The notes: a model not told the origin generated them from the sequence alone. Numbered from the whole stretch's first letter, positions 12,747-30,896 are shown. The stretch is DNA of 60,018 nt, filler included, from 6 parts of 6 records of this genome joined end to end with filler, not necessarily neighbours in it; one strand, 5' to 3'. Program-made: numbers and translations.

Positions 12747-12846
12747 NNNNNNNNNNNNNNNNNNNNNNNNNNNNNNNNNNNNNNNNNNNNTTAATTAATT
12801 AANNNNNNNNNNNNNNNNNNNNNNNNNNNNNNNNNNNNNNNNNNNN
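12747..12846. other. Artificial contig spacer
   Basis: 44 N + TTAATTAATTAA (stops in all six frames) + 44 N. Confidence 0.98.
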
Positions 12847-13306: not shown

Positions 13307-14377
13307 TTACCTATTTCGGTCACTTAATGGATTCAACCTGTTTATGACTTTTCTTGCCCAGGCCAGGTAATTCTCAGTAATTGGATTCATTTGGTTTTTT
13401 AGAATAGCCTGCTTTTCCATTTCATCAATATAACGCTCCACCACTACTGCCCTGTTCCAATTTTCTGCATCTGTAAACAATTGATCTACTTTGGCCTTTT
13501 CCAATTCCTTTTCCTTTTTAATAGCTTCAAGTTTCTGTTCCTGCAATAATCTTTTGTTTTTTTCAATAGCTTGTTGGGCCCTAAGATCGTGCCAATACTT
13601 ACAGTCTCTTTCAATCCAAGCTATTATTTCGGACAGATATTCCTCAAGTTTTCGTTTATCCTTGTCAATCCACTTTTTTTGTCGGAATGAGGGGCCGGCC
13701 TGAAACTCAAGTTTGTCCGATTTCTTCCAAGATTCACGGCCCCACCCACTTTCATCTTTATCTCGGATTCTATATACTTTTTGTCTTAGATTAATTTCAG
13801 TCATCTGCCCAAACATTTCCACATGACAGCGACTATATTCAAATGTTATATTATGCCCCATTGCTTCCACAATTTGTATCAGTGTATTCATAAATCTAAG
13901 AGCCCTTGTTCTTAATGTTTTATCAGTATGAATTGGCAATATGTCCTTCTCTTGGGACACTTGCCGGAATTTAAACTTCTCTTTACTATCATCGATATTA
14001 TCCAAGAGTTTCTTTGAACTTCTGACTATTGGATGATACTTAGAAATGCTTCCTGGAACTATAAACTTTAATTCCTTTCGTTGTTCCAGTTCATAGGCTC
14101 GTTGATGATAATCCGTTCTAAATTTCCGAGTCTTTGGACCCGAATTAAGGTTTATGTGAGCAATACTATTCTCCATTTTGGGCAATGAGGTTTTAACTAC
14201 CTTTTTCTTGAACCTAACCTTGGACCAATAGCCACGATTTGGTAACGGAATTTTATTTTCCGAACAAATATCCTTTAAGCTTTGTGGTTCTATATTAAAC
14301 ATTTTCGCAAGTTTGCTTATGGGTTGGTCCCAAACTAGATTATACAATTCCTTTCTTGAAAAGCTATTTTCTTTCAT
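13307..14377 (-). CDS. Hypothetical protein with N-terminal HTH-like region and C-terminal coiled coil
   Basis: 356 aa; SRKELYNLVW..P...LA...C....IPLPNRGYW N-terminus of a type often seen beside island integrases; function unknown. Confidence 0.7.
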   Translation of the reverse strand: MKENSFSRKELYNLVWDQPISKLAKMFNIEPQSLKDICSENKIPLPNRGYWSKVRFKKKVVKTSLPKMENSIAHINLNSGPKTRKFRTDYHQRAYELEQRKELKFIVPGSISKYHPIVRSSKKLLDNIDDSKEKFKFRQVSQEKDILPIHTDKTLRTRALRFMNTLIQIVEAMGHNITFEYSRCHVEMFGQMTEINLRQKVYRIRDKDESGWGRESWKKSDKLEFQAGPSFRQKKWIDKDKRKLEEYLSEIIAWIERDCKYWHDLRAQQAIEKNKRLLQEQKLEAIKKEKELEKAKVDQLFTDAENWNRAVVVERYIDEMEKQAILKNQMNPITENYLAWARKVINRLNPLSDRNR

Positions 14378-14795
14378 TATTAAAATTATCTTAGTAAAAA
14401 TTCGAGTTTACACCCAAAAATTGGTCATTTACTCGAAAAAATTCTAAAGTTTGATTTTATTAGAATAATTAAAAGTATGAAGCAAAGGAAATTATCTTTT
14501 TTAAACGGGATGAACTCAGTAGTTCAATTGTTAAACCTGTAACTGCATTAAAAAAGAGGTAACTTATCTCACTGCTAAAAAGGAGTTCATTGCCTTGAGA
14601 TAGTATTTTTATTTGGTTATACCCCCAAAGGTATTCGCCATAGGACAAACTCCCATCACAACTTATGTACACATCAAGGAGCTGCCAAATTATGTAGTAT
14701 AACCCAATATGCAACCAGCTATGTAGCTCAACATAGTTTTACCTGTTATCTCATACTGGAAGTGTTACTGTAACTATATATCACACACCTTTAAT

Positions 14796-15491
14796 TTATG
14801 CCATTAATGTTTCCAACTTTTCCTTCCACTTTTTCCATTCTGGAAATTCCTTTTCTTGTAACTCAAAAAAAGCTTTGTTATGATCAAGGTGTACCAAATG
14901 ACATAATTCATGGACAATGACGTACTCAACACAAGCCTTAGGGGCCTTTATCAATTCATTGTTTAATAGAATTCTACCTTTTGCCGAACACGAGCCCCAA
15001 CGGTATTGCATTGGTTTAATTTCAATATTATTGGGGCTTACCTTATATTTTTTAAACCTAATTATCAAAGGCTCGGCAATTTTAGGAAACCATAATTTTG
15101 CCTTTTCTAAATACCAAGAGTTAAGCAGGACATGAACATGATCTAGATGAATAACATGGACTTCTATAAATCGCCCAGTGTATTTTACAAACTCATTGGA
15201 ATCAATAATCACTTTTAATTGATATTGTCTCCCTAGATATAAATGTGTTTCTCCTGAAATATATTTTCTTTTAGTAGTTCTTGGTTCAAACGAAAGGAAG
15301 TAATCTTTTTGTTTAAGTATCCAAGGGGCCTTCTTTCTGACTTTTTGTTCGATTTTCTCAAGACTACTTCCTTCAGGAGCTTTTACAATAGTGCTTCTGT
15401 CCGGATATACGCTAATTCCCAGTGATTTTCGATTAGTAAATTCTATGGCATAAGAAATAGCTTCTGATCCATACTGAATAGTCTTAATCAT
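14796..15491 (-). CDS. M48/SprT-like zinc metallopeptidase (YgjP/DUF45 family)
   Basis: RWGSCS and YVIVHELCHL (HExxH); start overlaps the hsdR stop. Confidence 0.9.
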   Translation of the reverse strand: MIKTIQYGSEAISYAIEFTNRKSLGISVYPDRSTIVKAPEGSSLEKIEQKVRKKAPWILKQKDYFLSFEPRTTKRKYISGETHLYLGRQYQLKVIIDSNEFVKYTGRFIEVHVIHLDHVHVLLNSWYLEKAKLWFPKIAEPLIIRFKKYKVSPNNIEIKPMQYRWGSCSAKGRILLNNELIKAPKACVEYVIVHELCHLVHLDHNKAFFELQEKEFPEWKKWKEKLETLMA

Positions 15492-18400
15492 GACTTATAT
15501 CTGATTTTAGCTATTTCAACTAGACGCTCGGCAATTTTATCGATATCCTCAAAACCTAGTTTTAATTGATGCTTATCCCTTATCTCATCAATAATGTAAT
15601 CACCAATGAGAAATACCATCTTTTTAGGGATATCTACACTTTTGTACCAATCTACTTTGCGGAGTGAATTGATAATTCTATCCGCCTCCAAAGCTAAAAG
15701 TTCGGATACCCTTTCTGTAACTTTGATATCCTCGGATACTTTTGAGAATTCTTCTTTACTAATACCGAAAAATGCTCTTGCCACATCTTTATCTTGAAGA
15801 GAACTGGGGATTTTTGAATCTGTTTTACTTAAAACACTTTCCATAATTTCCTGTATACGTTTTAGATACTCCGTCTCATTTATCCGTTTTTGAAGATAGT
15901 CCTGAATTGTCTCCTTTATAAGTTGTGAAAAACGTTTATAAAATGCCGGATCTTCATCCATTTTTTCTGAAATGTGCTTTGCTGTTCGGGATGCTATCAT
16001 ATCTGCTTTTGCCGCCTTCCCTATTACTTTTTCAACTTCTTCTTCAAAGGCATTCTTGTCAAAAATATTGACCAGATCAGTTAGTGTTACAACATCGGAT
16101 GTGGCAATATGTGTATCTATTAGCTTTTGTATCTGTCCTTCATATTTCTTGTAGTCTATTTTATCTGAATATCTTGAAGATACTGCAGAACGTAGTTTCA
16201 TAAAAAACGCTAAGTCTTCTTTGTATTTTAATATCCTTTTTTCTTCAGTTGTATTATGAAACAAAATAGAGGAGAGGGCAAGTTTAAGAATTCTAGCATA
16301 CTTGGCAAGTTTATCATAAAACTTGTTTCGTAAGGCCTCATCCCTTAATAATTGTTGATATTCTTCTGCATCCCTCTTATTGGTAATGCCAGTAAAAATA
16401 TTCCATAGCTCACTATGAACTTGCGGTAGAACATCAATTTCCTCATTAATATTTGTCAAGGTTCCCATTAACTGCTCTTCATCAAAATCTTCAAAGGCAG
16501 AATACGTTTTTAAAGCAGAATCCAATTCTTCAAGTACACCATAATAATCTATGATGTAGCCGTAGTCCTTATCAGTATTAACCCTATTGACCCTAGCTAT
16601 GGCCTGTAATAAGGTATGGCCTATAAGCTTTCTAGTTAGATAAAGAACAATATTATTAGGTGCGTCAAAACCAGTAAGAAGTTTGTCCACTACTATTATT
16701 AATTCTGGCTCGTGGTCGTTCTTAAACTGGTTGACGATGTTTTTCTGGTACTTTTTTGGGGTACCATGCTGATCCATCATTTTATGCCAAAACTGCTTTA
16801 CTAAATCTGATGTTTTGCCATAAGCCGAATCTTCCCCTTCACGTTCATCAGGGGGTGATATGATAAGTGCAGAGGAAACTCTGCCAAATTCATCCAAAAA
16901 GTTCTTATACTTTACTGCAGCTGCTTTTGACTGGCATACGACCTGGCCTTTAAACCCCGTTCCTTGGAAGTTCTTAACGTAATGGTTCGTGATGTCCCAG
17001 GCAATTGCATAAATCTTTTGATCTGCTATATTCAATTGATCTGCCCTACTAAATTTTTTCTTTAAATCAGCTTTTTCGTAATCTGATAATGGTTCAGAAA
17101 CCATGTTGAAAAAATTATCAATAGGGGCCGCGTTAACGTCCTGCATTGCATGGCGACCTTCATATAACAGTGGAACAACCGCTTTATCCTTTACTGCCTG
17201 GTCTACGGTATAGCTGTCTATAAGTGTTCCGAATTTGGACAGCGTATTTTTGTCTTTCTTGAATAAGGGAGTTCCGGTAAATGCGATAAAACAGGCATTG
17301 GGTAATGTTTTTTGCATTTCAATATTGAAAGTGCCGTGTTGTGTTCTATGACCTTCATCTACTAAAACAAAAATATTTTCGCTTTCTAGGGGTGTTTTGA
17401 TCTTACGAACAGCTGTCTCAAACTTGTTGATGACGGTTGTCACTACGGCATCACTTTCGGTTTTCAAAAGACCGACCAGTTGAGAACCTGTTTTAGCGTT
17501 ATCTACATCCATACCACACTTTTTAAAGGTACCTGTAATTTGAGTGTCTAAATCGGTTCTATCGGTTACGAGAATAATTTTCGGGTTTTTAATAGTGGAT
17601 TCCATGGCAATTGCCTGTGCAAGCATCACCATTGTTAAAGACTTACCACTGCCTTGCGTATGCCAAACGACCCCTCCAATACGTTTTCCGTTTTTCTTCC
17701 TGGTTAATTGGGCCATTGCTTTTTTAATGGCAAAGAACTGCTGATAGCGCGCTATTTTTTTTGCACCATTATCAAATAACGTAAAATCGTAAGCAAAATC
17801 AAGTAACCGTTCTTTTTGGCACAAGCAAAAGATATATTCATCTTGTGGTGTAACTTTAACTTGCTCCTGATCAAATGCCTCAAAATAGGTTCTTACATTT
17901 TTAAATCTTTCATTAAACATCTTTTCCTTCACCTCTTTTGATAAAGGAATATTTTTAAGTTGTGCTAATTTTTGTTTAAAATGAGTTTCTTTTTCTCTGT
18001 TTATTGACCCATCTGTATTCTTAAAATCTTCTTGCCATTTGGCCCAAAATTTTTCTGGAGTACCTGTGGTTGCATAGCTACCCTCATTGACCGTTATCGA
18101 AAGTACCAACTGGGCCATGGCATATAAGTTTCGAATACCGTCTTCTTGCTGATTTCTAAGATGTTGAGATATGGCCTGCTCTAATGGGTCCTTTATATCT
18201 GGTCGCTTACATTCTATGACACATAAGGGAATACCATTAACAAAAAGTACGATATCTGGCCTGTAATGTTCTTTAAGGCCGGAGCGTAAAACACTATACT
18301 CCTCAGTAACATGGAAAACATTATTTCCTGGAGTTTTCCAATCAATATAGTGTAAGTCAAAACTTTTACGATTGCCATCTACACTTTGGTCTAAAGATTT

Positions 18401-18715
18401 ACCAAGTGTCAACAGTTCATATATTTTTTGGCTTGTGCCCATATAGCCATCGACCATAGGGATGTCCCTTAAGGCAATTATGCCCCCTTCTATATTACTG
18501 TCTGAAAAGGCAACGGCTGTGTTGGAAGATACCCGAGCCTCATTTATTTTTTTTAATTGTTTTCTTAAAATACCTTCTAGCAAAACTCCAGAAGTTCTAC
18601 CGCCACGTGCGTTTAGGGCTTCTTCCTGATTTAAATAGGTGTACCCCATATTAATCAATAGCTGTAGCGCAGGTATCTGTGAGATATGGTCTTCTTTGAA
18701 TGAGGGTGTTTGCAT
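15488..18715 (-). CDS. hsdR: Type I restriction enzyme subunit R
   Basis: RPDIVLFVNGIPLCVIECK nuclease motif, WHTQGSGKS Walker A, DEGH, FTGTP, LLTGFDAP, QAIARVNR. Confidence 0.97.
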   Translation of the reverse strand: MQTPSFKEDHISQIPALQLLINMGYTYLNQEEALNARGGRTSGVLLEGILRKQLKKINEARVSSNTAVAFSDSNIEGGIIALRDIPMVDGYMGTSQKIYELLTLGKSLDQSVDGNRKSFDLHYIDWKTPGNNVFHVTEEYSVLRSGLKEHYRPDIVLFVNGIPLCVIECKRPDIKDPLEQAISQHLRNQQEDGIRNLYAMAQLVLSITVNEGSYATTGTPEKFWAKWQEDFKNTDGSINREKETHFKQKLAQLKNIPLSKEVKEKMFNERFKNVRTYFEAFDQEQVKVTPQDEYIFCLCQKERLLDFAYDFTLFDNGAKKIARYQQFFAIKKAMAQLTRKKNGKRIGGVVWHTQGSGKSLTMVMLAQAIAMESTIKNPKIILVTDRTDLDTQITGTFKKCGMDVDNAKTGSQLVGLLKTESDAVVTTVINKFETAVRKIKTPLESENIFVLVDEGHRTQHGTFNIEMQKTLPNACFIAFTGTPLFKKDKNTLSKFGTLIDSYTVDQAVKDKAVVPLLYEGRHAMQDVNAAPIDNFFNMVSEPLSDYEKADLKKKFSRADQLNIADQKIYAIAWDITNHYVKNFQGTGFKGQVVCQSKAAAVKYKNFLDEFGRVSSALIISPPDEREGEDSAYGKTSDLVKQFWHKMMDQHGTPKKYQKNIVNQFKNDHEPELIIVVDKLLTGFDAPNNIVLYLTRKLIGHTLLQAIARVNRVNTDKDYGYIIDYYGVLEELDSALKTYSAFEDFDEEQLMGTLTNINEEIDVLPQVHSELWNIFTGITNKRDAEEYQQLLRDEALRNKFYDKLAKYARILKLALSSILFHNTTEEKRILKYKEDLAFFMKLRSAVSSRYSDKIDYKKYEGQIQKLIDTHIATSDVVTLTDLVNIFDKNAFEEEVEKVIGKAAKADMIASRTAKHISEKMDEDPAFYKRFSQLIKETIQDYLQKRINETEYLKRIQEIMESVLSKTDSKIPSSLQDKDVARAFFGISKEEFSKVSEDIKVTERVSELLALEADRIINSLRKVDWYKSVDIPKKMVFLIGDYIIDEIRDKHQLKLGFEDIDKIAERLVEIAKIRYKS

Positions 18716-18718
18716 AGA

Positions 18719-21700
18719 TTATCTATTTTCTACATTATCATGATCAAAATCTGGAGGTGTATTTTTGAATATTTTAGTATCCTGGCCGGAGACCCTATTT
18801 TTTTGGAATTCGCGAAGTTTTTTAATATTTACATTTCCTAGTAACACTACACTGTTTTCTCCTCCTTTTAATCTAAGAATATCTTTGGTTTCAGTTTTAG
18901 ATGGTGCCGTAATCCTTGAATCACCAAAATCGGAGCTATTAGCTTGTACGAAATAACAGTGTACATCCCTTGTTACAGTCTCAACTATATTTGAGAAGTA
19001 ATTAATATCTTGATTGTATTCCGAAGCAAACAATAAATCTACTTTAGACTTAAATAGTGCTCTATGATCAATATCTGCCAATTCGTAGCAATTGTAATTG
19101 CTAAAATGGATACCACCCCAAACAAATAGATTATAGAAGGCATTTTTGACATTTGGGACCCTCTTTCCCTTATCTATAATAGTTTTAATCTCATGTGGTG
19201 AATAGTGATTTTTAAGCCTCAAATTGACCACTACATCCTTTATGCCGTTATGTTCCATTGGCAGTAAAGTGGCTAAAAAATTATAACATATATTTCCAAT
19301 TCTAATATGTTCTAGGCCAACAATTATTGTTCTTTGCTTTCTTCTAGCTTGATCAGCTAAAATTGGAAGCCATCTATATGGAGTACTAACTTCAGGTAAA
19401 ATTAGAATATCCGATTTTACTTTTTCAGCATCATTTAGCAAATTAATGAATTCCCTACGTCTATCGATATCCGTATTTGGTTTACCAAATAAAGACTTTT
19501 CAATATTTAAGGTGTGGACCTTAGTATTGGCTACAGCAATTCGTAGGTTGTCAAAAATTCTCTTTGACTGTGGTATTTCAATTCGATTATAACTTAACTT
19601 ACTATTCGTAGTTTTATGACCTTCCTCAATTTTAAAGTAATAGTTTTTTAAATTATTAAGATGATCATTAATCTCTTTCTCTCTTTTATCAGTATAAAAA
19701 CCATTTCTTTGAGTATAGTTCACATTAAAAAACTCCTTAAAACTTTGGTCAAAAAGTGTTTGTCTTGAGGGCTCAAAGAAATCACCATCTCCATTCTTAG
19801 AGCTTGAAATCAAACTCCTCACAAAATCAATCAAATTGAATTCAAAGAGATAAATAAACCGGGGAGCGTATTTGAGTTTTCTTTTATCATATTCTAAAAC
19901 GCCGTTCTCAAAACCAATGGCAATATCACGGAGATAGTCATATTTTATGAGATTGGTCTTGTCATTCTGTGCGATATTTAAATAATTTAACAATGGAACA
20001 ACTACAAAGCTATTTCTCAATAAACTGGATGATATATAATCATTTTTAAGAGCATACACTTTTTTGTGAAAACTCTTGTTCAGCCAGTTATATCTGAAAT
20101 TTTTACATCGACTCTCCCACCAATTTTGGTCAACAAAGTTTGGGTTTAATGAAGTTGCAAGTGCACAGCAATTCATTAAGTAGTTGCCTAAATAGTCTTT
20201 AACACCTTCAACTGTTTTAGAGTTAATTTTCCTTTTATCTGAAGACTTTATTTTTTCAATAGAGGACACTGTTTCTTTAAAAAATCTCCAAAAAGCTTCC
20301 CTATCATTTATAATAACGAAATAGGTCAATACCTTTTCCCAAAGGTTAGAAAATTCCAAATTAACTATTCCTTTGAAGAAAGTAAGAATCTGTTCGGTTG
20401 TTTTGTCATCCTTTCGGTTATCGGACAAAAGGCTAACCTTTATTCGTTTTGCAAGGAAAATTGAAGCTCCATATTTACTTTGTTTAATATCTGCAACACT
20501 CCTTAATTTGTTAATTGTATCCGTATAAGTTAGTTCATAAACGCTTTCATCAAAATCATCATTAATATCACTCTCGTTGGGCAAGAACCAAAAAGCACTC
20601 GAGTTTTGTTCTATTTTCTTTTTGAACATATCCAGAACCGCCTGAGATTCTTTGCTTTCAAAAGAGTAAATCGTTATTTTTTCCTTTTGAATTCTTATTT
20701 TTTCATCATCCTTAAAATGATAAGTAAGCTCCCGGTCCTGTATTGATTTTTCCGTATTATCTGGAATAGCCTTGAAAATATTCCTTTCAATGAAAAATTT
20801 ATTTAGAAATGCCTCCAACGGGGACTTAAATTTATTTTTATCAAAATCCTTTGAAATTTTCGTATTACTTAAAACAATCAAAATGTCATCAACATACCTG
20901 CCATAGTAGGCCGGTGAAAGTTCTTCTTTGATTTTATTGTCGAATTCCTTTAAATACCAATTGGCTAATATCCCCGAAGATAAAATACCAATGGGCATTA
21001 TAGCCATGGAATCCTTAGGACATTTTGTTTGATAGACTTCATTAATTTTGAATATCATTTGTGTAAATAACAACCCACTTACACCTAATCCACTTGCAAT
21101 TCTCTTATGCAGTTTGTCTTGAAGATTTAAATCATACCCTATATTATAATAGTATTCTTTAATATCGAGTGAAAGTATAACAACATCGGTATCCTCTGCA
21201 ACGATACTTTTGGCAAGATCCACTCCTTTATCACGCCATTTTTGATACTGTTCAAAGTAAGGTTTGAATAATCTCAGACCATCAACAACGTTACCGTTTT
21301 CAGAATTTAACTCTAAGAAGTATGCATAATTATCCTTACTATAATCTTTGTGCAATATGTATCCTTCTCTAATTATCCATAAAATAGAAATTAGATGCAA
21401 CTCAACAGGTCCCTGAAAAAAATAGTTTATTTTTTTTAGATCATAATTCTTTTCCGAAAAATTATTGCTTATAATATTATCCCCACCAAAAACCTGTTCT
21501 CTCACAAAAGTTTTTGGAGCAATGAAGTAATCAATCGATTTTAATAAATCCTCAAAATATTTTTTCTTTGTTACCGGTGCATTTAAAAAGGCGACCAAGG
21601 CATCTAGTTTACCCTCAAAAACTTCTTCAATAGCTTCAAATTCTGCCAATTGTTGGCGAAGCAATAGTGAGAAGTTGTCATAATATACGTAACTCTTCAG

Positions 21701-21742
21701 TTTCCTATATGCTAAATCTATATCTTTCCTTTTAAATGCCAT
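18719..21742 (-). CDS. Reverse transcriptase fused to C-terminal nitrilase (carbon-nitrogen hydrolase) domain; DRT1/UG1-UG5-UG6-like defence RT
   Basis: RT motifs LSLDIKEYY, MPIGILSSGILANWYL and YYGRYVDDILIV (YVDD at 20885-20896). Nitrilase E-K-C triad: ILPE (E at 19391-19393), RLKNHY (K at 19211-19213), NCYE (C at 19088-19090). Confidence 0.9.
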   Translation of the reverse strand: MAFKRKDIDLAYRKLKSYVYYDNFSLLLRQQLAEFEAIEEVFEGKLDALVAFLNAPVTKKKYFEDLLKSIDYFIAPKTFVREQVFGGDNIISNNFSEKNYDLKKINYFFQGPVELHLISILWIIREGYILHKDYSKDNYAYFLELNSENGNVVDGLRLFKPYFEQYQKWRDKGVDLAKSIVAEDTDVVILSLDIKEYYYNIGYDLNLQDKLHKRIASGLGVSGLLFTQMIFKINEVYQTKCPKDSMAIMPIGILSSGILANWYLKEFDNKIKEELSPAYYGRYVDDILIVLSNTKISKDFDKNKFKSPLEAFLNKFFIERNIFKAIPDNTEKSIQDRELTYHFKDDEKIRIQKEKITIYSFESKESQAVLDMFKKKIEQNSSAFWFLPNESDINDDFDESVYELTYTDTINKLRSVADIKQSKYGASIFLAKRIKVSLLSDNRKDDKTTEQILTFFKGIVNLEFSNLWEKVLTYFVIINDREAFWRFFKETVSSIEKIKSSDKRKINSKTVEGVKDYLGNYLMNCCALATSLNPNFVDQNWWESRCKNFRYNWLNKSFHKKVYALKNDYISSSLLRNSFVVVPLLNYLNIAQNDKTNLIKYDYLRDIAIGFENGVLEYDKRKLKYAPRFIYLFEFNLIDFVRSLISSSKNGDGDFFEPSRQTLFDQSFKEFFNVNYTQRNGFYTDKREKEINDHLNNLKNYYFKIEEGHKTTNSKLSYNRIEIPQSKRIFDNLRIAVANTKVHTLNIEKSLFGKPNTDIDRRREFINLLNDAEKVKSDILILPEVSTPYRWLPILADQARRKQRTIIVGLEHIRIGNICYNFLATLLPMEHNGIKDVVVNLRLKNHYSPHEIKTIIDKGKRVPNVKNAFYNLFVWGGIHFSNYNCYELADIDHRALFKSKVDLLFASEYNQDINYFSNIVETVTRDVHCYFVQANSSDFGDSRITAPSKTETKDILRLKGGENSVVLLGNVNIKKLREFQKNRVSGQDTKIFKNTPPDFDHDNVENR

Positions 21743-21752
21743 ATGGTAATTT

Positions 21753-23000
21753 TTAATATTTTAACCTTTTCTTCCCCGTCAACAATTGCTGCATAAGGCC
21801 TTTCTTTTGTTTTTTTAATTGTTTCAGATGTTTTTCAAACAATTCAATTTCTTGGTCAGCTGATTTTAAAATTTTAGCAATCGCCACTTGCTCATCGTAT
21901 GGAGGTATTTTGATTTTAAGCTTGTTTAGTTCCTTTTTACTCAAAACCCTGTTTCGGCCAGCGCCACCTGGAGATATTAATTCTAATAAGTATCTAAATC
22001 GTTTGGATTGGATGAATTGTTTAAAAAAATCAGTATCACTAATCCCATCTTTAAATGTATAAGTTGGAAAACGATGCGAAACCAATGCTCCTGCATCTTT
22101 ATCTTTTACAATTGCCACAGCGCCCTCCCAAGCGAACGTGATATTCACAATTAAATCTTTTGGTTTAACTAAGTACAGTGTGTCAATCGCAATTTCCTCT
22201 GGTTCAAAACCCAAATTTTGGAAAGTACCTTTACAATGACTTCGAATCCCCAATTTTATAAATGCCGCTTCTGGTTTTTGAACAGGTCTTGGCGTATAAT
22301 CCAAGAAAAAATCAAAACGATTTATTTTCCAATCCTTTTCAAACCCTGACAAGCGTTTTTTACCAGAAAGCAATTTCTGCATTAATGCTTTTTTAAGTTG
22401 CTTTTTGGTGGCAATTAACTTAGTTTGTTTGGTAATGGCCGCATCCCAAACAGAAAGGCAGTTGGCTATCGTTTCTTGTTCTGGCAGAGGTGGAAGAGGA
22501 ACATTCAACCCACCGTATTCTTCACCATTAATGCCTGGTTGTCCACTTCGAACCGACATAACATTCACCCATTTCCAATAATTTTCAGACTGTGTAAAAT
22601 ACTTCAAATAAGAACTATTTAATATAGATTCTTTTATGGAAAACTTTATCAAAAATCCTGCATAAACCAATTCACCATCTTTAAGGTCATATAAATATGT
22701 TTTTCCTACGGTTGCACCTGTTCTAACAAAAACAACGTCGCCTTTTTGCAAAATGAAACTCTCATAATTTGGATCATCAACAGACATTTTTTTCTTTCTT
22801 GAAAAATTCCCCTCGTCATCAATATCCGTTATTCTCAGGTAGGCCGGTAAATCCTCCCTATAAGAAACAGCAGAAGCATTTATACCATAGGAACCTTTTG
22901 AATTACATAGCTCAACTAGTTTCTGAGTTTCCCAATCCATAGGAATCCATCCTAATTTGGTTTTTTTTAAGCAATTACTTTTCGTTTCTGCCTCTTTCAT
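21753..23000 (-). CDS. hsdS: Type I restriction-modification specificity subunit (two TRDs)
   Basis: LGWIP-DW N-terminus, LPPLPEQ and IPPYDEQ conserved repeats, KKALMQKLL and KKGLMQQLLTG helices. Confidence 0.95.
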   Translation of the reverse strand: MKEAETKSNCLKKTKLGWIPMDWETQKLVELCNSKGSYGINASAVSYREDLPAYLRITDIDDEGNFSRKKKMSVDDPNYESFILQKGDVVFVRTGATVGKTYLYDLKDGELVYAGFLIKFSIKESILNSSYLKYFTQSENYWKWVNVMSVRSGQPGINGEEYGGLNVPLPPLPEQETIANCLSVWDAAITKQTKLIATKKQLKKALMQKLLSGKKRLSGFEKDWKINRFDFFLDYTPRPVQKPEAAFIKLGIRSHCKGTFQNLGFEPEEIAIDTLYLVKPKDLIVNITFAWEGAVAIVKDKDAGALVSHRFPTYTFKDGISDTDFFKQFIQSKRFRYLLELISPGGAGRNRVLSKKELNKLKIKIPPYDEQVAIAKILKSADQEIELFEKHLKQLKKQKKGLMQQLLTGKKRLKY

Positions 23001-24346
23001 ATACCCGTTTCATTTTTATTTTCCACTAGGGCATTCAACTTTTGAACCAGTTGCCGAACACTCTGTTTTACGCTAGAGGTTAGAACTTCCAAATCTATTT
23101 TTTCATTGTACAAGTGCTCACTTTTTAAGTGATCAGGATAGTGGTGTTCAATCTCAAACTTATAATCGTGAAAATATAAAGTGAAGCCCAGGCTTAAACT
23201 TTCTTGCTTTGGAAGTAAAGGCTTAAATTCTTGTAAAAAGATGCGAAACTGAAGGTAGTCAATGGTAGCTAAATCATAACTTCCCCAATATTCTTCACGC
23301 TGATCTGGTAACCATTCAAATTTTTGGGCTTTTCCATTTTTGGTCATTATTTCAGCTTTATTAATGATAAATTTATCACGGAGCTTAGCCCATTGCCTAT
23401 CATATTCAAACAATACCGGAAGAAATACGGCAATTAGCACTTGATTAATATGATTATTTGACCTTCTTGGGACTTCTTTATTGCTGCCATTTATTTTCTG
23501 TTCAAGCAGTGCTAATTCCTTTTCTAAATCATCTGGTTCATCTATCGATTTTCCTTGAGCTGCGGCAATGGCTAATTCTGTTGTCTTTAAGGACTCTGTC
23601 GCAATCAGCTCCGCTAAAGGCAATGGATTCTCTAAAGAACTCAAGTTCAACATGCTGTAGTAAGTGTCCCTTTCCTCTAAACGGATAATTGCCGGTGTAT
23701 AGCCGCACTGCATCAAAATTAGATTGCCCAAAATACGAGATAATCTGCCATTACCATCACCGAAGGGATGTATCTGAATAAAGCGAACCTGGAATGCGGC
23801 TGAAATCAGAATGGGATGTAGATTGTATTTTCTCTTTTTCCGCTTTGGCTTTTCAATTTGATTATTTAGCCAATTAATAAGTGTATTCAATTCTTTAACC
23901 ACTTCTTCAGGAGGCAAAAAATCAATCCTTTCACCCGTGATGGTATATAAATAATTGGGTTTTGTCTTATATTTTCCAGGGGCTATTTCTGTTTTATCAT
24001 CGGTAAACGGCTCTACCAGGATCATCTGGTGTAAATCCATAATGAGTTTTTCAGATATCATTACATCTTTATCTACAAGACCAGTAAGCTTTTTCAAGGT
24101 TTCGTTATGGCCACGCATCTCAATATAGTCTCGAAATGGTTTACCTTTGGCGGTAATCCCATGCAGGATAAATGCCTTGGTTTCATGAGCCGTAAGGGTA
24201 TTACCTTCAATACTATTACTGTGGTAATTCCAATCCAGACGTAACTTTTGCTCAAGTTTATTTTGTTGTTCTTCACTTAATGGTCTTAATAAATCCAATT
24301 CAGATTTTTTTGCATCAAGTGCACTTATAATTTCAGGTAATTCCAT
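22997..24346 (-). CDS. Fic family protein (intact FIC motif, N-terminal autoinhibitory motif)
   Basis: HPFGDGNGRLSR canonical motif; SNSIEGN (S/T)xxxE(G/N) motif; stop overlaps the hsdS start. Confidence 0.93.
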   Translation of the reverse strand: MELPEIISALDAKKSELDLLRPLSEEQQNKLEQKLRLDWNYHSNSIEGNTLTAHETKAFILHGITAKGKPFRDYIEMRGHNETLKKLTGLVDKDVMISEKLIMDLHQMILVEPFTDDKTEIAPGKYKTKPNYLYTITGERIDFLPPEEVVKELNTLINWLNNQIEKPKRKKRKYNLHPILISAAFQVRFIQIHPFGDGNGRLSRILGNLILMQCGYTPAIIRLEERDTYYSMLNLSSLENPLPLAELIATESLKTTELAIAAAQGKSIDEPDDLEKELALLEQKINGSNKEVPRRSNNHINQVLIAVFLPVLFEYDRQWAKLRDKFIINKAEIMTKNGKAQKFEWLPDQREEYWGSYDLATIDYLQFRIFLQEFKPLLPKQESLSLGFTLYFHDYKFEIEHHYPDHLKSEHLYNEKIDLEVLTSSVKQSVRQLVQKLNALVENKNETGI

Positions 24347-24367
24347 ATTTGCATTGTTTGATTAGAT

Positions 24368-25897
24368 TTACTCTAAACCAAGTTCTTTTAAATAATTTTT
24401 CATTTCCGCTTGCACTCCGGCCAATTCCTTCTCCAATTGATCAATTTCTTGCTGAACCGCAGTAATATCTATTTCCTCCTCTTCCTCAAAAGTGTCTACA
24501 TACCTTGGTATGTTCAAGTTAAACTCATTCTCCATCATCTCGTCAAAAGGAGCTACATAACTATACTTATCCTCTAGAACACCCGCTTTGAGGTTACCCT
24601 TTTTAAAATTATAATAGGTATCTACAATGCGGTCAATATGTTTTGGAAGCAATTCATTCTGGTTTTTACCGCTGGCATATTCTTCACTCGCATCAATAAA
24701 CAGCGTATCCGTTCTTTTCTCTTTACCTTTATTGAAAATTAATATCGCTGCTGGTATACCGGTTCCAAAAAAGAGATTGGCGGGTAGGCCAATAACGGCA
24801 TCCAATAAATTATCTTCAATCACTTTTTTACGAATTCTTCCCTCTGCACTTCCCCTAAAGAGTACACCATGTGGTACAACGACTCCGATCATTCCAGTAT
24901 CATCATAGGCGCTTTCGATCATATGTAAAATAAAGGCCCAATCGGCTTTACTTTTTGGCGGAACTCCTCGCGAAAATCGGTGATATTTATCGTTCTCAGC
25001 ATCCTCAGAACCCCATTTGTCCAATGAAAAAGGTGGGTTTGCCACAACAGTATCGAACTTCATAAGATTGTCTCCCTCTGTATGCTTGGGGTTTCTAAGG
25101 GTATCTCCCCATCTTATGGAAGCATTGTCAAAACCATGTAAAAACATATTCATTACCGCTAATGCCCATGTACTGCCATTCGCTTCTTGCCCATAAAGCG
25201 AAAAGTCATTACCTTCCACTTGTTGTCCTGCTTTAATCAATAATGAGGCTGACCCACAAGTAGGATCGTAAATTCGTGCTCCTGGTTTCGACTTAGTCAA
25301 CTTGGCCAATAAAGTAGAAACTTGTTTTGGGGTGTAAAATTCTCCCGCTTTTTTCCCGGCATCACTAGCAAAATTTGAAATTAAAAATTCATAAGTATCA
25401 CCCAAAACATCTTGCCCATCAAGTGATGAAGGTTTTAAATCCAATTTGTTAAAATCGGTCAACAAGTTTTTAAGCCTCGCGTTCTTGTCTTTTTTATCAC
25501 CTAAATTACTGCTATTGAAACTAATATTCCTAAAGATACCGGCACCGTCAGAGCTTGTTAACTTTTCCCTATTCTGTTCTTCCAGGTCCGCAAGGGCAAT
25601 ATCTATTAGTTCGCCTATATTGGGTTCGTTTCGCTTGTCATAAAGATCACTAAAATGACTATGTGAAGGAACAATAAATCGCTCAGAAGCCATGGCTCTT
25701 TCCGCCCTGCGGACATCACCATCATATTTAATTAGGTGTTTTTGATATCGTTCCGTGTAGGTATCAGAAACATACTTTAAGAAGAGCATGACAAGAATAT
25801 AATCCTTGTACTGACTAGGATCAATAACCCCTCTAAAAGTGTCGCATGCCTGCCAAACCACCCTGTTTACATCCTCTGACGTAAGTTTTTTACTCAT
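24368..25897 (-). CDS. hsdM: Type I restriction-modification methyltransferase subunit M
   Basis: GEFYTP, DPTCGS, NPPF (m6A MTase motif IV), GVLFRG, NLNIPRYVD. Confidence 0.97.
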   Translation of the reverse strand: MSKKLTSEDVNRVVWQACDTFRGVIDPSQYKDYILVMLFLKYVSDTYTERYQKHLIKYDGDVRRAERAMASERFIVPSHSHFSDLYDKRNEPNIGELIDIALADLEEQNREKLTSSDGAGIFRNISFNSSNLGDKKDKNARLKNLLTDFNKLDLKPSSLDGQDVLGDTYEFLISNFASDAGKKAGEFYTPKQVSTLLAKLTKSKPGARIYDPTCGSASLLIKAGQQVEGNDFSLYGQEANGSTWALAVMNMFLHGFDNASIRWGDTLRNPKHTEGDNLMKFDTVVANPPFSLDKWGSEDAENDKYHRFSRGVPPKSKADWAFILHMIESAYDDTGMIGVVVPHGVLFRGSAEGRIRKKVIEDNLLDAVIGLPANLFFGTGIPAAILIFNKGKEKRTDTLFIDASEEYASGKNQNELLPKHIDRIVDTYYNFKKGNLKAGVLEDKYSYVAPFDEMMENEFNLNIPRYVDTFEEEEEIDITAVQQEIDQLEKELAGVQAEMKNYLKELGLE

Positions 25898-26448
25898 TGT
25901 ATTTTACTTTTTAATTGATATTCAAGTTTAATATTCCTTAGACTTTCTAATTTTAGAATTAATTTCGATTCATGTTTTTTTAGTTTATCCAAAGCAACGA
26001 TTTTTGTCTGGCTTGTCAAATCTGTCAGTTCAATGTCCAAGTCCCCAAGTATTCTTTTGTTAATGGCCGGTAATGCCGAACCACGACCATAACTTGTCAA
26101 TACTTCCTGAGTGGACCTTAAATTAATATACCAAGCCAAATACTCTGGAAGAACATTGGAGTTGATATTCCTTAATACCATAAAAATAGATGAAGCCACT
26201 GCAGGAAATTTAACCCCTTGGTAACAATGAGCTGAAAAACCATTGTGCCCTTTTGATAAAACTAAAACATCTCCCTTTTCCAAAAAATGTTTGTCCAGTT
26301 TTGAGGAATGAATAATGCCTGGTTCCATTAGCGGATCAAGTTTGTGAACTTCAACAAAATCGCTACCACCCAAGTAGAACACAGTTCCTTGAGGGTTTCT
26401 TCGCTCATTTATTCCCGAAGATATAGTTGCAATTTCAGATAATTTCAT
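25894..26448 (-). CDS. Half-size HsdS-like protein (single TRD-CR unit)
   Basis: MKLSEIATISSG, LEKGDVL, AVASS, LPEYLAWYIN, GSALPAI, then helix; ATG at 26448; stop overlaps the hsdM start (ATGA). Confidence 0.8.
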   Translation of the reverse strand: MKLSEIATISSGINERRNPQGTVFYLGGSDFVEVHKLDPLMEPGIIHSSKLDKHFLEKGDVLVLSKGHNGFSAHCYQGVKFPAVASSIFMVLRNINSNVLPEYLAWYINLRSTQEVLTSYGRGSALPAINKRILGDLDIELTDLTSQTKIVALDKLKKHESKLILKLESLRNIKLEYQLKSKIQ

Positions 26449-26498
26449 TTTAGTCGTTGTTATCAATGTACAAATATTGAAATTATATTTCGATTACA

Positions 26499-26506
26499 CA
26501 AATTTA
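26499..26506 (-). promoter_or_regulatory. Candidate Bacteroidota -7 promoter for the R-M/RT operon
   Basis: Minus strand TAAATTTG about 50 nt upstream of the first ATG; a chance match is possible in AT-rich DNA. Confidence 0.4.
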
Positions 26507-26619
26507 TTTTATTGTTATTAGCGTACAAATACTATCCTAGATAAGATTAAGCAGAGTGTTTTTAACCTTTTTGTATTTAAAAGACTCAGCATCTGGTCAA
26601 GTGAGGCACATTAAAATAT

Positions 26620-26685
26620 CCAAGTCTTACCAGTAAACTTTGCGCCTAGATCCTGTCCGATTTTTGTTGTGTTCGGGAAAATAAT
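26620..26685. repeat. Degenerate att-like core plus 45-nt conserved arm (copy A)
   Basis: 26641-26685 matches 32041-32085 at 41/45 positions; preceded by CCAAGTCTTACCAGTAAACTT, which resembles the att-like core. Confidence 0.85.
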
Positions 26686-26687
26686 CG

Positions 26688-26704
26688 TACCTGCCCGGCA
26701 GGTA
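26688..26704. repeat. Short perfect inverted repeat (REP-like)
   Basis: TACCTGCC-C-GGCAGGTA, 8-bp arms. Confidence 0.6.
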
Positions 26705-27027: not shown

Positions 27028-30000
27028 ATGAAAATGATACCTAGAGGGTTGGCTGTTTTGGGCACCCTGGCTACATCGACCCTCATTTCGTTTTTAATTG
27101 ATGGTGGAACCACCGCTACATTAGGATTCACCACAAAAGTGCTACATAGTCTCGGAGGAATATTAAAAAATAACTTGGATGGATCTTTTTTCAACCAATT
27201 ATTAGATGCCAAAAATAATTATTCCGCTGTTTTAAACCATGATCTTGAAAAGGCCTACAAGGCATCACTTAAAAATACATTTAATGAATTGAGAAAGGAG
27301 TTTTATTCCGAAGTAGGCATTTCCATTAGCCTGGTAGCGCAAATAAAAATTAGGTTCAACAATATTACCACTGAGGATTTCAATAAGAAAACATCAATTG
27401 AACGCCTATTCTTTAAGCCATTGGAACTAGCCCTATCCAATCCAGAACTAATAGACTCCATTTTTCGTGATAAAAAAGAAGTTCAACTGGATACCATTGT
27501 TAAAGATATATTGCTAAACTGCCCCAATGTGGAATATCCTTATTTCGTTGATACTGAAAAGGACAAGGAAAAATTACTGGACATTATATGTAGGGACTTC
27601 AATAAAAAATTCTTGTCCCATTTCAACAATGAACTAAAATTAAATAAGAATGCCGAGACCGTTTATCACACCAACTTACTCCAAACCTGTGTAAAGAACC
27701 TTACCGAAATCATTGATGGACAGACAGCAATTTTATCCAACCAAACCGATTTAAAAAGAGATCTAAAAGAGCTTATAAAGTTTTCCAGTTGGAACAAATT
27801 GGACATGGAAATCCTAAAAAGTCAAAATTCACAAATCCTTACCCAGATTAATGAAATAAAAGAAATACTTACAACAAACTATTCTCCAGTTCTAAAAATA
27901 TATGATAAAAGACCTGAAAATGTTAATATTAAGGACAGGTTTCTATACGAATCTCTTTTTACCAATTTCGTAGGTCGAGGAAACGAGCTAAATTTAATTT
28001 ATGACTTCCTAGAGGAAGACCAAAAATTTTCCTGGTTAATGATAGAAGGACCCAGTGGATCTGGAAAAAGTAGATTTGCCAATGAAGCATGTCTCAGAGC
28101 TAGGGATATTGGATGGGATAGTGGTTTTGCTCCTATTGGTCATAATAAAGATTATAATTGGGGCAATTTTAGACCGGTCAATGATACCTTGATCGTCTTC
28201 GACTACGTAAGGTCCAGAAAGGACGATATTCGTCATATTCTGGAATCATGCAAAATTATAGAGGATATTGCCAAAGACAAATTATTTCCAAAACTTCGAA
28301 TATTGTTATTGGAGCGGTTTTTTGATTCTAAACTGATTAATGCTCTGGACAATGTCAATGTAAGAAATAATTACTTCCGATTTAATGGACATGAAAATTT
28401 GGCTTACCCATTGCCAGAGTTGGAAGAAGATTCTCGATGGAATATCCTAAAACAAATTTTTCGAGGTAATATCCTAGAGGAAAGTTTGATAGAACAAAAA
28501 AATGAGATTCTATCCCAAATCCAACAACAAGATCCATTAAATAGACCATTGTTTACTTTTTTCAGTGGGATTGCTTTGGTGGAAGGTGAAAATATTAAAG
28601 GTTGGGATACAAATCAAAACTTACACTATCATTTAAATAGACAGGAAGTCAATTTATGGAGTAAAAACCCATTATGGGAATTACATCAGAGAGCGTTAAA
28701 GAACTTAATTTGGCTTGCTACCATGTGTGAGTACATAACTCCAAAGGATGTACTTGATTACATTGCAATCGATCAACGATTAATTGATTTTGAATTAAAT
28801 AAAAAAAATAGGGAATGCATTGAAGAACTATTTAAAGTGGTAAATGAAAAAAATGACCATGAAACATTTTACGGAATAAAGCCAGATATTTTTGGTGAGT
28901 ATTTTATTGTAAATTACTTGGAAGAAATAGAAGAAGACAGTTGGGAGTCTAGGGAGTTGGCTCCACAATTATTTGTGACATCTTTCCTTATTGACCCCGA
29001 GAATGCAGCCAGTTCCATAAGTATTACTTCGGACAATTTTTTTCACTCTAAGGGATTCAATATACTTGAGGATTTCTTGAAGACTTATTATAACGCCGAT
29101 TTCATTCCCGAGAGCATTGAGTTCGGATTTTTATTAGCAGATATTGGAAATCGTCATTATATGCAGAATAATGTCCAAGAGGCGCAAACTTACCTTTTAT
29201 TGGCAGCGGAATTGCAAACCGCATATGCATATATAGGTTTGGCTTTGATTTATCAGCACGATGGCAATTTCGACCTTGCTGTAAAATGCTTTTTGAAAGC
29301 TATACAACTCTGCGATAATGATCCTTTTTCAAATTTAAGTTGGGTTTACTATCAGTTTGCCAAATTTTATAGGGACAATAACAATTTTGAAGAAGCAAAA
29401 ATTTATTATGGTAAGGCCATGGAATTTGAAACAGAGGGCTCGCTGGAATCGATTGTAGCTTTAGCGGAATTGTTTTTGAAGGAAGGAAACGAGAAAGAGG
29501 CGGAAAGAACACTTTTGATTGGGCTGGAACGTGATGATGCCAAATCTATTCACTCCCTAGGAATTCTTAAAAGATCTCATGGGAACATGGCAGAAGCTCA
29601 GAAATATCTGCAAAATTCTTTGAATCTAAATAATTTCGAGTCTGCCATTAGTCTTGGCTTAATCTATGTTGATCAAAATGAAATTGCCCTGGCGGAACGG
29701 GTTTTTCTCAAAGCAATTAATTCTAAAGACTCAGCACCAATAGCCTATCGAAATCTAGCCTTTCTGTACTATAAGACCAATCAAAAAAAGGAACAATCAT
29801 TGGAATATATTAACCGTGCCGTTCAATTGGATGAAGATTCACTTATCAACAAATTTTGTAGACAAATAATTTATTTATGGTGTCATAAATTAAATGAATT
29901 TGATTCAAATAATAAGGAACTAGAGACGGAATATGACAAAATTGAATTGCCACTATTAGAAGAATACATATTCCACTTATTAGTTCATAGACAAATTAAT

Positions 30001-30174
30001 TACCTTTTAAAGCAATTTCGTTACGGGGTTGCTCGTGATTACCTAAAATCCTCTTTACCACTATACCATAAAACTCTAGTTTGTACTGAATTCATAGAAG
30101 GAGCAACAATTCCAGAAGACGTAACTCAATTATTCCAGGAAATAAAGAAAAGACGAAATTACTATAATGTCTAG
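27028..30174 (+). CDS. NLR/STAND-like P-loop ATPase with C-terminal TPR/Sel1 repeats
   Basis: FVGR..EL, GPSGSGKS Walker A, TLIVFD Walker B, RILLLER sensor-like strand, NRPL; C-terminal TPR-like helices (AYIGLALIY...A...F.KA, AYRNLAFLY). Confidence 0.8.
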   Translation: MKMIPRGLAVLGTLATSTLISFLIDGGTTATLGFTTKVLHSLGGILKNNLDGSFFNQLLDAKNNYSAVLNHDLEKAYKASLKNTFNELRKEFYSEVGISISLVAQIKIRFNNITTEDFNKKTSIERLFFKPLELALSNPELIDSIFRDKKEVQLDTIVKDILLNCPNVEYPYFVDTEKDKEKLLDIICRDFNKKFLSHFNNELKLNKNAETVYHTNLLQTCVKNLTEIIDGQTAILSNQTDLKRDLKELIKFSSWNKLDMEILKSQNSQILTQINEIKEILTTNYSPVLKIYDKRPENVNIKDRFLYESLFTNFVGRGNELNLIYDFLEEDQKFSWLMIEGPSGSGKSRFANEACLRARDIGWDSGFAPIGHNKDYNWGNFRPVNDTLIVFDYVRSRKDDIRHILESCKIIEDIAKDKLFPKLRILLLERFFDSKLINALDNVNVRNNYFRFNGHENLAYPLPELEEDSRWNILKQIFRGNILEESLIEQKNEILSQIQQQDPLNRPLFTFFSGIALVEGENIKGWDTNQNLHYHLNRQEVNLWSKNPLWELHQRALKNLIWLATMCEYITPKDVLDYIAIDQRLIDFELNKKNRECIEELFKVVNEKNDHETFYGIKPDIFGEYFIVNYLEEIEEDSWESRELAPQLFVTSFLIDPENAASSISITSDNFFHSKGFNILEDFLKTYYNADFIPESIEFGFLLADIGNRHYMQNNVQEAQTYLLLAAELQTAYAYIGLALIYQHDGNFDLAVKCFLKAIQLCDNDPFSNLSWVYYQFAKFYRDNNNFEEAKIYYGKAMEFETEGSLESIVALAELFLKEGNEKEAERTLLIGLERDDAKSIHSLGILKRSHGNMAEAQKYLQNSLNLNNFESAISLGLIYVDQNEIALAERVFLKAINSKDSAPIAYRNLAFLYYKTNQKKEQSLEYINRAVQLDEDSLINKFCRQIIYLWCHKLNEFDSNNKELETEYDKIELPLLEEYIFHLLVHRQINYLLKQFRYGVARDYLKSSLPLYHKTLVCTEFIEGATIPEDVTQLFQEIKKRRNYYNV

Positions 30175-30179
30175 AGTGC

Positions 30180-30896
30180 TTATTTTTTAGATTGAATGAT
30201 GTAAGGCTTATTTGTATCCAAATCCTTTTTATAAATATCAGATGACACGAATTCGTGTTGGAACCGATCCTTTGTCCGCCCATATTTCAACAGATTAACA
30301 ATCCCTGCATCATCTAAGTCTTTCCGGAGCCATTCCTCCTCAAAGGACCTATCCAGCACCACAGGAACTCGTTTTCCCTTTTCCTGTCCGTTATCATAAG
30401 GACATTCCTGTTGTGTAGTTAAAATCGCGCAATTGTAAACTCTACAACTCTCCTCATAAATTCCCGCGAATGAAAATATCGACCTACCTTCGAAGTTATC
30501 CTCATTTTTTTGGTAATAAAATCTGGGCTGATCTTTCCTATTGTAAAAATCCGGACTAAAGTAACCATCGGCAATAATTAGGCATCTCTTATTGCGGACC
30601 AATTCTGCATATTTATGGTTCTGAAGGCAATATTCACTTTCCACTTGATAAATCTTTTGAAACTGCACCGCCGTATTTAAATCCTCAGTTGGTCCCCAGT
30701 TTAAGATATTACCCCAAAAGGAAAAATTCAAATGATTGGGTCTGTCCATAGGCACTATCATAAGTTCATCGGACATATATAATCCACATTTATGATAGGT
30801 TGGAAAATAGAACCAATCCATCTCTTCCTCGAACGATCGATCGTATCTATCTATAATTTCCTCATGAAGGGCATTTAGAGAAATATGAAGACACAT
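30180..30896 (-). CDS. SOS response-associated peptidase (SRAP) family protein, divergent
   Basis: N-terminal MC, WG, KRCLIIADGYF, FSFAGIY, ILTT, RVPVVL...EEEWL. Confidence 0.82.
   Translation of the reverse strand: MCLHISLNALHEEIIDRYDRSFEEEMDWFYFPTYHKCGLYMSDELMIVPMDRPNHLNFSFWGNILNWGPTEDLNTAVQFQKIYQVESEYCLQNHKYAELVRNKRCLIIADGYFSPDFYNRKDQPRFYYQKNEDNFEGRSIFSFAGIYEESCRVYNCAILTTQQECPYDNGQEKGKRVPVVLDRSFEEEWLRKDLDDAGIVNLLKYGRTKDRFQHEFVSSDIYKKDLDTNKPYIIQSKK

Follow-up and report, generated by a model that had tools for sequence, protein, structure and literature searches.

Fic and UG5 reverse transcriptase-nitrilase genes as candidate defence cargo in two inter-gene slots of a type I restriction-modification operon

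Defence genes embedded in type I restriction-modification (R-M), BREX, DISARM and Hma systems have been described by Payne et al. (bioRxiv 10.1101/2024.01.29.577857) under the term "guilt by embedding". According to the accessible portion of that preprint, each PDC model derives from clusters in which one or more sequences lie embedded in BREX, DISARM or type I R-M, and DRT type III, in one instance, is the only embedded DRT named there. A second defence effector between the hsd genes of one cluster is likewise found in PrrC-EcoprrI, in TgvAB of V. cholerae VPI-2 and in Campylobacter Rlo. Here we analysed a 60,018-nt stretch of joined contigs (the window), which at positions 14796-26448 carries seven consecutive minus-strand open reading frames (ORFs) encoding a small HsdS-like protein (small S), HsdM, a Fic protein, a full HsdS, a reverse transcriptase (RT) fused to a nitrilase, HsdR and a YgjP-like peptidase. 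As in the embedding described by Payne et al., the cargo is nested on the same strand between the genes of a multi-gene system, varies among relatives, and consists of known defence genes or PDC candidates (PDC-S04 for the Fic gene; PDC-S05, S02, S13 and M66 in the slots of relatives). The window differs in filling two slots at once, with the Fic gene between hsdM and hsdS (M-S slot) and a UG5-large RT-nitrilase gene between hsdS and hsdR (S-R slot).

We consider it likely that this locus is a type I R-M operon of a widespread family carrying, in the slots between its genes, two anti-phage genes that act independently and can be exchanged horizontally. Both cargo genes are assigned by profile to stand-alone defence families (PDC-S04/SoFic-like and class 3 UG/Abi RT, respectively), and the locus is a new combination of described parts rather than a new kind of system. 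A model's reading of the DNA before any database search (the sequence-only reading) had not recognised the combination as a named system; the combination as such indeed has no name, but defence genes embedded in type I R-M have already been published. A literature search, which did not cover supplementary tables that might list such cases, found no paper on UG5 RTs within hsd operons or on the combination of Fic and RT.

The seven genes are packed with computed junctions of −4 nt between small S and hsdM (ATGA), 21 nt between hsdM and the Fic gene, −4 nt between the Fic gene and hsdS, 10 nt between hsdS and the RT gene, 3 nt between the RT gene and hsdR, and −4 nt between hsdR and the YgjP-like gene. 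These values and the shared orientation are identical to those given by the sequence-only reading, and its statement that both slots hold enzymes with intact active sites was borne out by the Fic, RT and nitrilase motifs, all of which were found. The arrangement is no chance pattern of ORFs, since distant genomes and plasmids show this gene order again.

The R-M core was identified from three genes. The hsdM gene (24368-25897, minus strand) encodes a type I N6-adenine DNA methyltransferase of 509 aa that matched Pfam N6_Mtase (PF02384, 4.5e-106) and HsdM_N (PF12161, 9e-26), contained NPPF at residue 287 and scored 307 bits against NCBIfam TIGR00497, above the cut-off of 242.75. The full specificity subunit of 415 aa is encoded by hsdS (21753-23000, minus strand) and was matched by Pfam Methylase_S (PF01420, 1.2e-26) in two stretches, indicating two target-recognition domains, and by PADLOC Specificity_I over residues 19-414 (8.4e-70). 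The type I restriction/translocase subunit of 1075 aa, encoded by hsdR (15488-18715, minus strand), contained the Pfam domains HSDR_N, SWI2_SNF2 (1.7e-78), ResIII, T1R_D3-like and T1RH-like_C, matched PADLOC REase_I (8e-204) and NCBIfam TIGR00348 (460 bits, cut-off 284.55), and carried GSGKS at 355, DEGH at 453 and the nuclease residues E168-x-K170 (ECK at 168). HsdM, the two-domain HsdS, and HsdR with its predicted nuclease and superfamily 2 (SF2) motor thus place the locus among the type I R-M systems.

The cargo of the M-S slot (22997-24346, minus strand) is a Fic-domain protein of 449 aa, consisting of a core (residues 1-260) and a C-terminal part of ~190 aa that is not assigned to a family and had no informative match in the ESM atlas, where only unnamed clusters or scores <0.8 were returned. 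The protein matched Pfam PF02661 (3.3e-16), PADLOC PDC-S04 (PDLC04840, 1.1e-29 over residues 35-240) and SoFic (2e-23), with 3cuc (1.1e-39) and FICD (9e-25) as solved relatives in the PDB. The Fic motif HxFx(D/E)GNGRxxR was present as HPFGDGNGRLSR at residue 193. The inhibitory helix of class II Fic enzymes carries the motif [ST]xxxE[GN], and the N-terminal SNSIEG at residues 43-48 fits it. The window protein therefore shares the motif-bearing core, the N-terminal motif and the structural relatives with SoFic and class II FICD-like proteins, from which it differs in its additional C-terminal part and in its score of 25.3 bits against the NCBIfam SoFic equivalog (NF046030), far below the cut-off of 550; by these scores it is a Fic protein and no SoFic orthologue. 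A weak match to DOC_P1 was also obtained in the NCBIfam search, and tblastn against plasmids returned 324 records, all aligned to the Fic core only (≤51% of the query).

The S-R slot (18719-21742, minus strand) encodes a 1007-aa UG5-large RT fused to a C-N hydrolase (nitrilase), a class 3 UG/Abi RT that was matched over its full length (residues 3-1002) by PADLOC RT_UG5-nitrilase (PDLC03780, 3.5e-256). The RT motif YVDD at 283-286 and the nitrilase residues E784, K844 and C885 were invariant in 22/22 aligned sequences. Homologues numbered 722, the best of them 80% identical, and the nitrilase part also matched the DRT1 structure 9yfd (7.8e-09). The full-length UG5-nitrilase profile, YVDD, the E-K-C triad, the size of ~1000 aa and the lack of room for a non-coding RNA (ncRNA) are all shared with the UG5-large class 3 RT-nitrilases (DRT5L; "DRT11" of S. 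meliloti). The window RT differs in being nested between hsdS and hsdR, whereas the others stand alone or precede a gene for a transmembrane protein, and across the nitrilase part it shares only ~30% identity with the protein from S. meliloti (30.5% for the pSymA locus). In tblastn against plasmids the RT returned 3 records, all from S. meliloti and all on the nitrilase part only. A UG5-large RT-nitrilase alone confers Abi-like immunity that needs both active sites and no ncRNA, as stated in the accessible text of PMC13436386; an RT gene of this kind can therefore sit between flanks of 10 nt and 3 nt, as it does here. Consistent with these flanks, Rfam found no family at the gathering threshold over the whole window, and the 560 nt upstream of the operon gave two sub-threshold matches of chance level only, with no ncRNA candidate for the RT. 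No transmembrane-protein gene lies downstream of the RT gene, as hsdR begins 3 nt past its stop codon. Such a gene is a minority feature of UG5 loci (31/299; Mestre et al.) and is not required, because DRT11 of S. meliloti lacks it and is still protective (accessible text of PMC13436386). According to the accessible part of PMC13275509, the class 3 enzymes DRT1, DRT5S and DRT5L make DNA without a template and with protein as the primer, and in DRT1 the synthesised DNA assembles the nitrilase and keeps it silent until infection.

To compare the locus with its relatives, genome contigs were scanned with the RT alignment, and 65 loci, which were the best-scoring of 585 confirmed relatives and not a random sample, were searched in two rounds, by phmmer with the window proteins and afterwards with profiles that the resulting matches yielded. 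Type I R-M genes lay beside the RT gene on the same strand in 15/65 loci and in 12/43 of those flanked by 5 kb or more on each side, and the RT gene was nested between R-M genes in 11/65 (9/43 with full flanks), while 31 of the 43 fully flanked loci had no adjacent R-M. Six of the 11 nested loci, from Tenacibaculum (two), Aquimarina, Sulfurimonas, Melioribacteraceae and Marinomonas (L001, L003, L004, L010, L016 and L053), showed the order M-S-RT-R-YgjP, which thereby ranges over Bacteroidota, Campylobacterota, Ignavibacteriota and Gammaproteobacteria. Four further nested loci (Sideroxydans and three Verrucomicrobiota) carried a split RT plus nitrilase in a second R-M family, and in one, L014, the order was M-RT-S. 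The M-S slot was empty in L004, L010 and L053, and held a 134-aa ORF in L001, RhuM in L016, and RhuM together with two small ORFs and a PLD-like gene in L003; L053 had a Bro-N/PDC-S13 gene between small S and hsdM, in what constitutes a third slot. Even in the closest relatives, with RT 71% and HsdM 79% identical to those of the window, this slot was thus empty (L004) or filled by an unrelated ORF (L001). Fic was found inside the R-M operon in 0/15 of the other R-M-linked RT loci, and a Fic-like gene of L034 lay 2.4 kb upstream, outside the operon.

The identity of cargo and scaffold to the window varied from locus to locus: L016 showed 69% for HsdM, 57% for HsdR and 36% for RT; L003 showed 58%, 43% and 56%, respectively; and L002 and L007 showed 26-33% for HsdM and 24-26% for HsdR at 58-59% for RT. 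In the RT tree (61 rows, quick method, LG+G4, five rows with a first RT ORF of <600 aa being dropped), L002 and L007 fell within the RT clade of the window yet carried a different R-M partner family, the L016 RT grouped with other lineages, and the R-M-association label changed state 9 times. Because the identities differ by locus in this manner, the comparison indicates that RT and R-M genes have not co-diverged and that cargo and scaffold have separate histories.

Individual loci of this set showed further arrangements. In Ochrovirga pacifica (L008:9983-14099), the RT-nitrilase beside type I R-M was in three pieces, with an insertion sequence (IS)-type transposase (HTH_38 plus rve) inserted. 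In Chryseobacterium aquaticum (L024:3492-6993), the interval from hsdS to hsdR contained a further hsdS in inverted orientation together with a tyrosine recombinase, immediately upstream of hsdR and the RT gene, an arrangement that looks like a phase-variable specificity shufflon. Two Verrucomicrobiota loci (L034:10698-11966 and L051:7237-8496) carried, within the R-M operon and following the split RT and nitrilase genes, a gene resembling a pPIWI-associated nuclease (PADLOC Aga_Nuclease, ~1e-57), and L051 had an additional HipA-like/DUF3037 pair (PDC-M66). Full-length UG5-type RT-nitrilases were also present in metagenome-assembled genomes of Methanoregulaceae archaea (L025, L026, L027 and L062), where they formed a starred clade of their own.

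The scaffold could also be followed without the RT. Searching plasmids with HsdR (tblastn) returned 630 records, of which 10 of the top 19 (L066-L075) were opened and re-scanned with local profiles; their HsdR was 36-47% identical to that of the window. The S-R slot was filled in 10/10 of these unselected plasmid scaffolds and contained the RT in 0/10, its contents being Abi, TIGR04141 (twice), Shedu plus HAD, DUF6119, HAD, Shedu plus DUF3800, Fic, DUF3800 plus a hypothetical gene, and YecA. Occupation of the M-S slot was found in 5/9 evaluable plasmid scaffolds (RhuM in three, MazEF and GIY-YIG) and in 9/16 evaluable scaffolds overall (Fic, the 134-aa ORF, RhuM in five, MazEF and GIY-YIG). 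Two Fic genes in or beside plasmid scaffolds shared only the Fic core with the window protein, and the genes just past the YgjP-like gene in relatives matched PDC-S14 and PDC-S18. These comparisons define smallS-M-[slot]-S-[slot]-R-YgjP as a widespread type I R-M scaffold whose slot contents change freely. The sequence-only reading had proposed one composite multi-enzyme system, to be given up if slot occupants varied among relatives without co-occurrence of Fic and RT. Such variation is what the relatives display, with Fic lacking from all other R-M-linked RT operons, the RT lacking from all ten plasmid scaffolds and a different or empty M-S slot in the nearest relatives, and the proposal is not supported.

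Two less familiar genes, at the two ends of the operon, recur with the scaffold. The first gene encodes the single-domain HsdS-like protein (25894-26448, minus strand, with a 4-nt overlap between its stop and the hsdM start), in which the ATG at 26448 of an ORF spanning 25894-26466 gives 184 aa. It matched Pfam Methylase_S in one stretch (7.2e-06) and PADLOC Specificity_I (2.8e-15). Its identity to the first half of the full HsdS was only 23%, on which ground a recent hsdS duplicate or inversion partner was rejected, and a repeat search for an hsdS shufflon gave short matches of low identity only. Homologues of small S (60 matches across Flavobacteriaceae genera) were nearly all of 184-188 aa and most were 51-84% identical; the gene stood at the same position in L003, L016, L053 and 8/10 plasmid scaffolds. 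With this conserved length and position in distant scaffolds, a decayed remnant was also rejected. Because the closest RT-bearing relatives, L001 and L004, lack small S, it is a facultative component of the scaffold. Such conservation is unusual for a specificity domain and may point to a target that is fixed or to a structural function.

The last gene (14796-15491, minus strand, with a 4-nt overlap between its start and the hsdR stop) encodes a predicted YgjP-like (SprT/WLM-type) zinc metallopeptidase of 231 aa. The protein matched Pfam PF01863 (4.5e-52, profile positions 1-205/207), gave weak SprT-like and WLM matches, contained HELCH at 194 and had no PADLOC or NCBIfam match. The label M48 proposed by the sequence-only reading had to be replaced, as Pfam gave no Peptidase_M48 match at E≤0.001. 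The gene belongs to the same family as those annotated by PGAP as "SprT family / M48 family" after hsdR in type I R-M loci, which encode ~230-250 aa with HExxH and have a start codon that overlaps the hsdR stop or is only a few nt from it. It directly followed hsdR in 6/6 YgjP-type genome loci and 10/10 plasmid scaffolds, and in 17/17 scaffolds examined, suggesting that the peptidase is a conserved accessory of the R-M scaffold and not cargo. A link of this peptidase family to COG1451 was reportedly noted in earlier comparative work, and our literature search found no functional characterisation of the post-hsdR family. The anti-restriction protein ArdC has an SprT-like domain and its protease activity is dispensable, as reported in the accessible part of PMC7213743.

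The preferred reading implies the following course of events. One promoter upstream of small S would drive all seven genes, with overlapping or nearly abutting stops and starts linking their translation. The M2S complex would methylate host DNA, and R2M2S would translocate along and cut unmodified incoming DNA. The Fic protein would be a self-inhibited class II-type AMP-transferase (PDC-S04/SoFic-like) serving as a separate toxic or abortive effector once triggered, and the RT-nitrilase would act as described for class 3 UG/Abi RTs, without ncRNA. The YgjP-like peptidase would, as a conjecture, control or clear HsdR complexes. Co-transcription would then provide layered defence and linked inheritance rather than a single biochemical pathway.

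Transcription signals were sought with the Bacteroidetes promoter consensus known from the literature. A candidate promoter of this type, TTTG-N19-TAAATTTG, was found at 26499-26529 (minus strand), 51-81 nt upstream of the first start; the pattern had 4 matches in the whole window (1.71 expected), of which this was the sole one on the minus strand of the 19-kb operon contig (13000-27000 included), and no full −33/−7 pattern occurred inside the operon. At the other end, a possible operon terminator is formed by a hairpin (14401-14437) with U5 behind it, and the fold of the spacer between the YgjP-like gene and the next ORF, orf356, was unexceptional (z = −1.25). A scan for sigma-70 promoters, a type wrong for Bacteroidota, returned 59 sites where 57.1 were expected. 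A single transcript for the seven genes is plausible from sequence. If instead internal promoters or terminators split the locus into several units, for example an M-S unit and an R unit, the tight spacing would reflect compact insertion only. Classical type I loci such as EcoKI have separate promoters for hsdR and hsdMS, nine lone −7-type motifs (TAnnTTTG) lie on this strand inside the operon (~7 expected), including one that lies 97 nt upstream of hsdS, and weak hairpins with T-runs occur inside hsdM (24793-24776) and hsdR (18594-18574). However, the three 4-nt overlaps and the gaps of 3-21 nt leave no room for promoters between genes, the full promoter pattern is confined to the region upstream, terminator-like hairpins were fewer than in shuffled sequences (6 found, 9.1 expected), and embedded genes are generally co-oriented with their host system (Payne et al., accessible portion), so that we regard a split operon as highly improbable.

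Two other explanations concern what the cargo does. By analogy with PrrC-EcoprrI, the RT-nitrilase, the Fic protein or both could be kept inactive by the R-M complex, or sense its state, and become active once that complex is knocked out by an anti-restriction protein of a phage, as a guard and backup. In addition to the PrrC precedent, this coupling gains from how often UG5 RTs occur within or next to type I R-M among the best-scoring loci, from the spread of the association over the RT tree, two R-M families and both slots (the latter through L014), from the switch of R-M partner family within the RT clade of the window, and from RT-R-M junctions that were tight in every nested case. PrrC, however, is found embedded in nearly all cases, with the R-M enzyme masking it physically, whereas the UG5 RTs are mostly free-standing, with 11/65 nested and 31/43 without adjacent R-M. 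A UG5-large RT-nitrilase protects alone in S. meliloti, and DRT1 does likewise in E. coli, according to the accessible parts of the reports. In addition, the count of 15/65, which comes from the best-scoring rather than randomly sampled relatives and without a baseline from other single-gene defence systems, may reflect clustering in defence islands and a general habit of embedding. We therefore judge the coupling to be unlikely. Selfish maintenance is a further explanation, in which toxin-like cargo hitch-hikes in a mobile R-M cassette as an addiction or stabilisation module that maintains the island rather than defending against phage. Here the M-S slot of a Deinococcus plasmid scaffold holds the toxin-antitoxin pair MazEF, Fic/Doc proteins include the toxins of toxin-antitoxin pairs (with the weak DOC_P1 match at this locus), the contig starts with a C-terminal fragment resembling a tyrosine recombinase, although Pfam did not confirm it, and the RT gene has a lower G+C content (31.4%) than the neighbouring hsdR and hsdM (36.7-39.2%). 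Yet no antitoxin-like small gene stands beside Fic or RT at this locus, the Fic protein has an inhibitory-helix motif of its own, and anti-phage activity has been demonstrated for UG5-large and DRT1 in the accessible reports; we give this explanation very little credence.

We thus favour a widespread R-M scaffold with two independent defence genes, against which several observations weigh. Given the lone −7-type motifs, the operon may contain internal promoters. The presence of UG5 RTs in or beside type I R-M is more frequent than naive independence predicts (15/65), which leaves room for coupling. The scaffold could need a partner in its S-R slot, which was filled on every plasmid examined, and the putative defence role of the Fic protein is drawn from its family membership.

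The surroundings of the operon were delimited by the assembly. Linkers of the form N50-TTAATTAATTAA-N50 (~50 N on each side) at 12747-12846 and 32087-32185 join three contigs in the window, and adjacency across them is therefore not real. The operon contig spans 12847-32086 (19.2 kb, G+C content 34.8%); the recJ and OsmC genes left of the operon belong to another contig, and the best protein matches of the RT and small S were from Flavobacteriaceae, Yeosuana, Tenacibaculum, Dokdonia and Winogradskyella among them. The contig at 32186-60018 (28 kb) has a G+C content of 53%, fragmented ORFs and eukaryote-type domains (the N-terminus of a P4 phospholipid flippase, CEP76 and adaptin) and derives from an organism other than that of the bacterial contigs. 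Divergently from the operon, on the plus strand, lies a gene (27028-30174) for a STAND-like AAA_16 plus TPR protein of 1048 aa without PADLOC match, followed by a gene for an SRAP/YedK-type peptidase (30180-30896, minus strand). On the other side, orf356 (13307-14377, minus strand) encodes a 356-aa protein of an unnamed family, for which the ESM atlas returned only unnamed clusters or scores <0.8. At the contig start (12848-12964, plus strand) an ORF is represented by its final 38 codons, with the ending ...SLGHQNLGVTQAYLKE..., which we take to resemble the C-terminus of a tyrosine recombinase; this very short query gave no Pfam or PADLOC match, and if it is truly a recombinase, the R-M island adjoins an integrase. 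A dispersed 45-nt repeat (91% identical) occurs at 26641-26685, upstream of the operon promoter and adjoining a GC-rich hairpin (26688-26704), and at 32041-32085, the extreme end of the operon contig, while its first part also ends the preceding contig (12722-12746). The assembly probably broke at this multi-copy element.

The occurrence of UG5 RTs in or beside type I R-M operons, across many RT lineages and two R-M families among these best-scoring loci, would be mildly new. That these RT-nitrilases are preferential partners of type I R-M, with repeated independent entry into the hsdS-hsdR slot (once into the hsdM-hsdS slot), involving two R-M families and no fewer than five phyla, and with the linkage kept when the R-M family changes, appears possible but unlikely to us. 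If true, it would be compatible with a guard circuit that puts the protein-primed RT-nitrilase, as an abortive effector, under the gating of the R-M complex or of that complex's inactivation by phage anti-restriction proteins, as EcoprrI gates PrrC. In the reading that we favour, the locus exemplifies stacked immunity in a marine Flavobacteriaceae-like bacterium, namely restriction and two putative abortive-type effectors under one candidate promoter. Points of note are the ever-present YgjP-like peptidase, the unusually conserved small S, the frequent linkage of UG5 RTs with R-M and the always-filled S-R slot of the plasmid scaffolds. The two or three slots of this scaffold would act as a cargo rack for defence genes, making it a practical bait for new ones.

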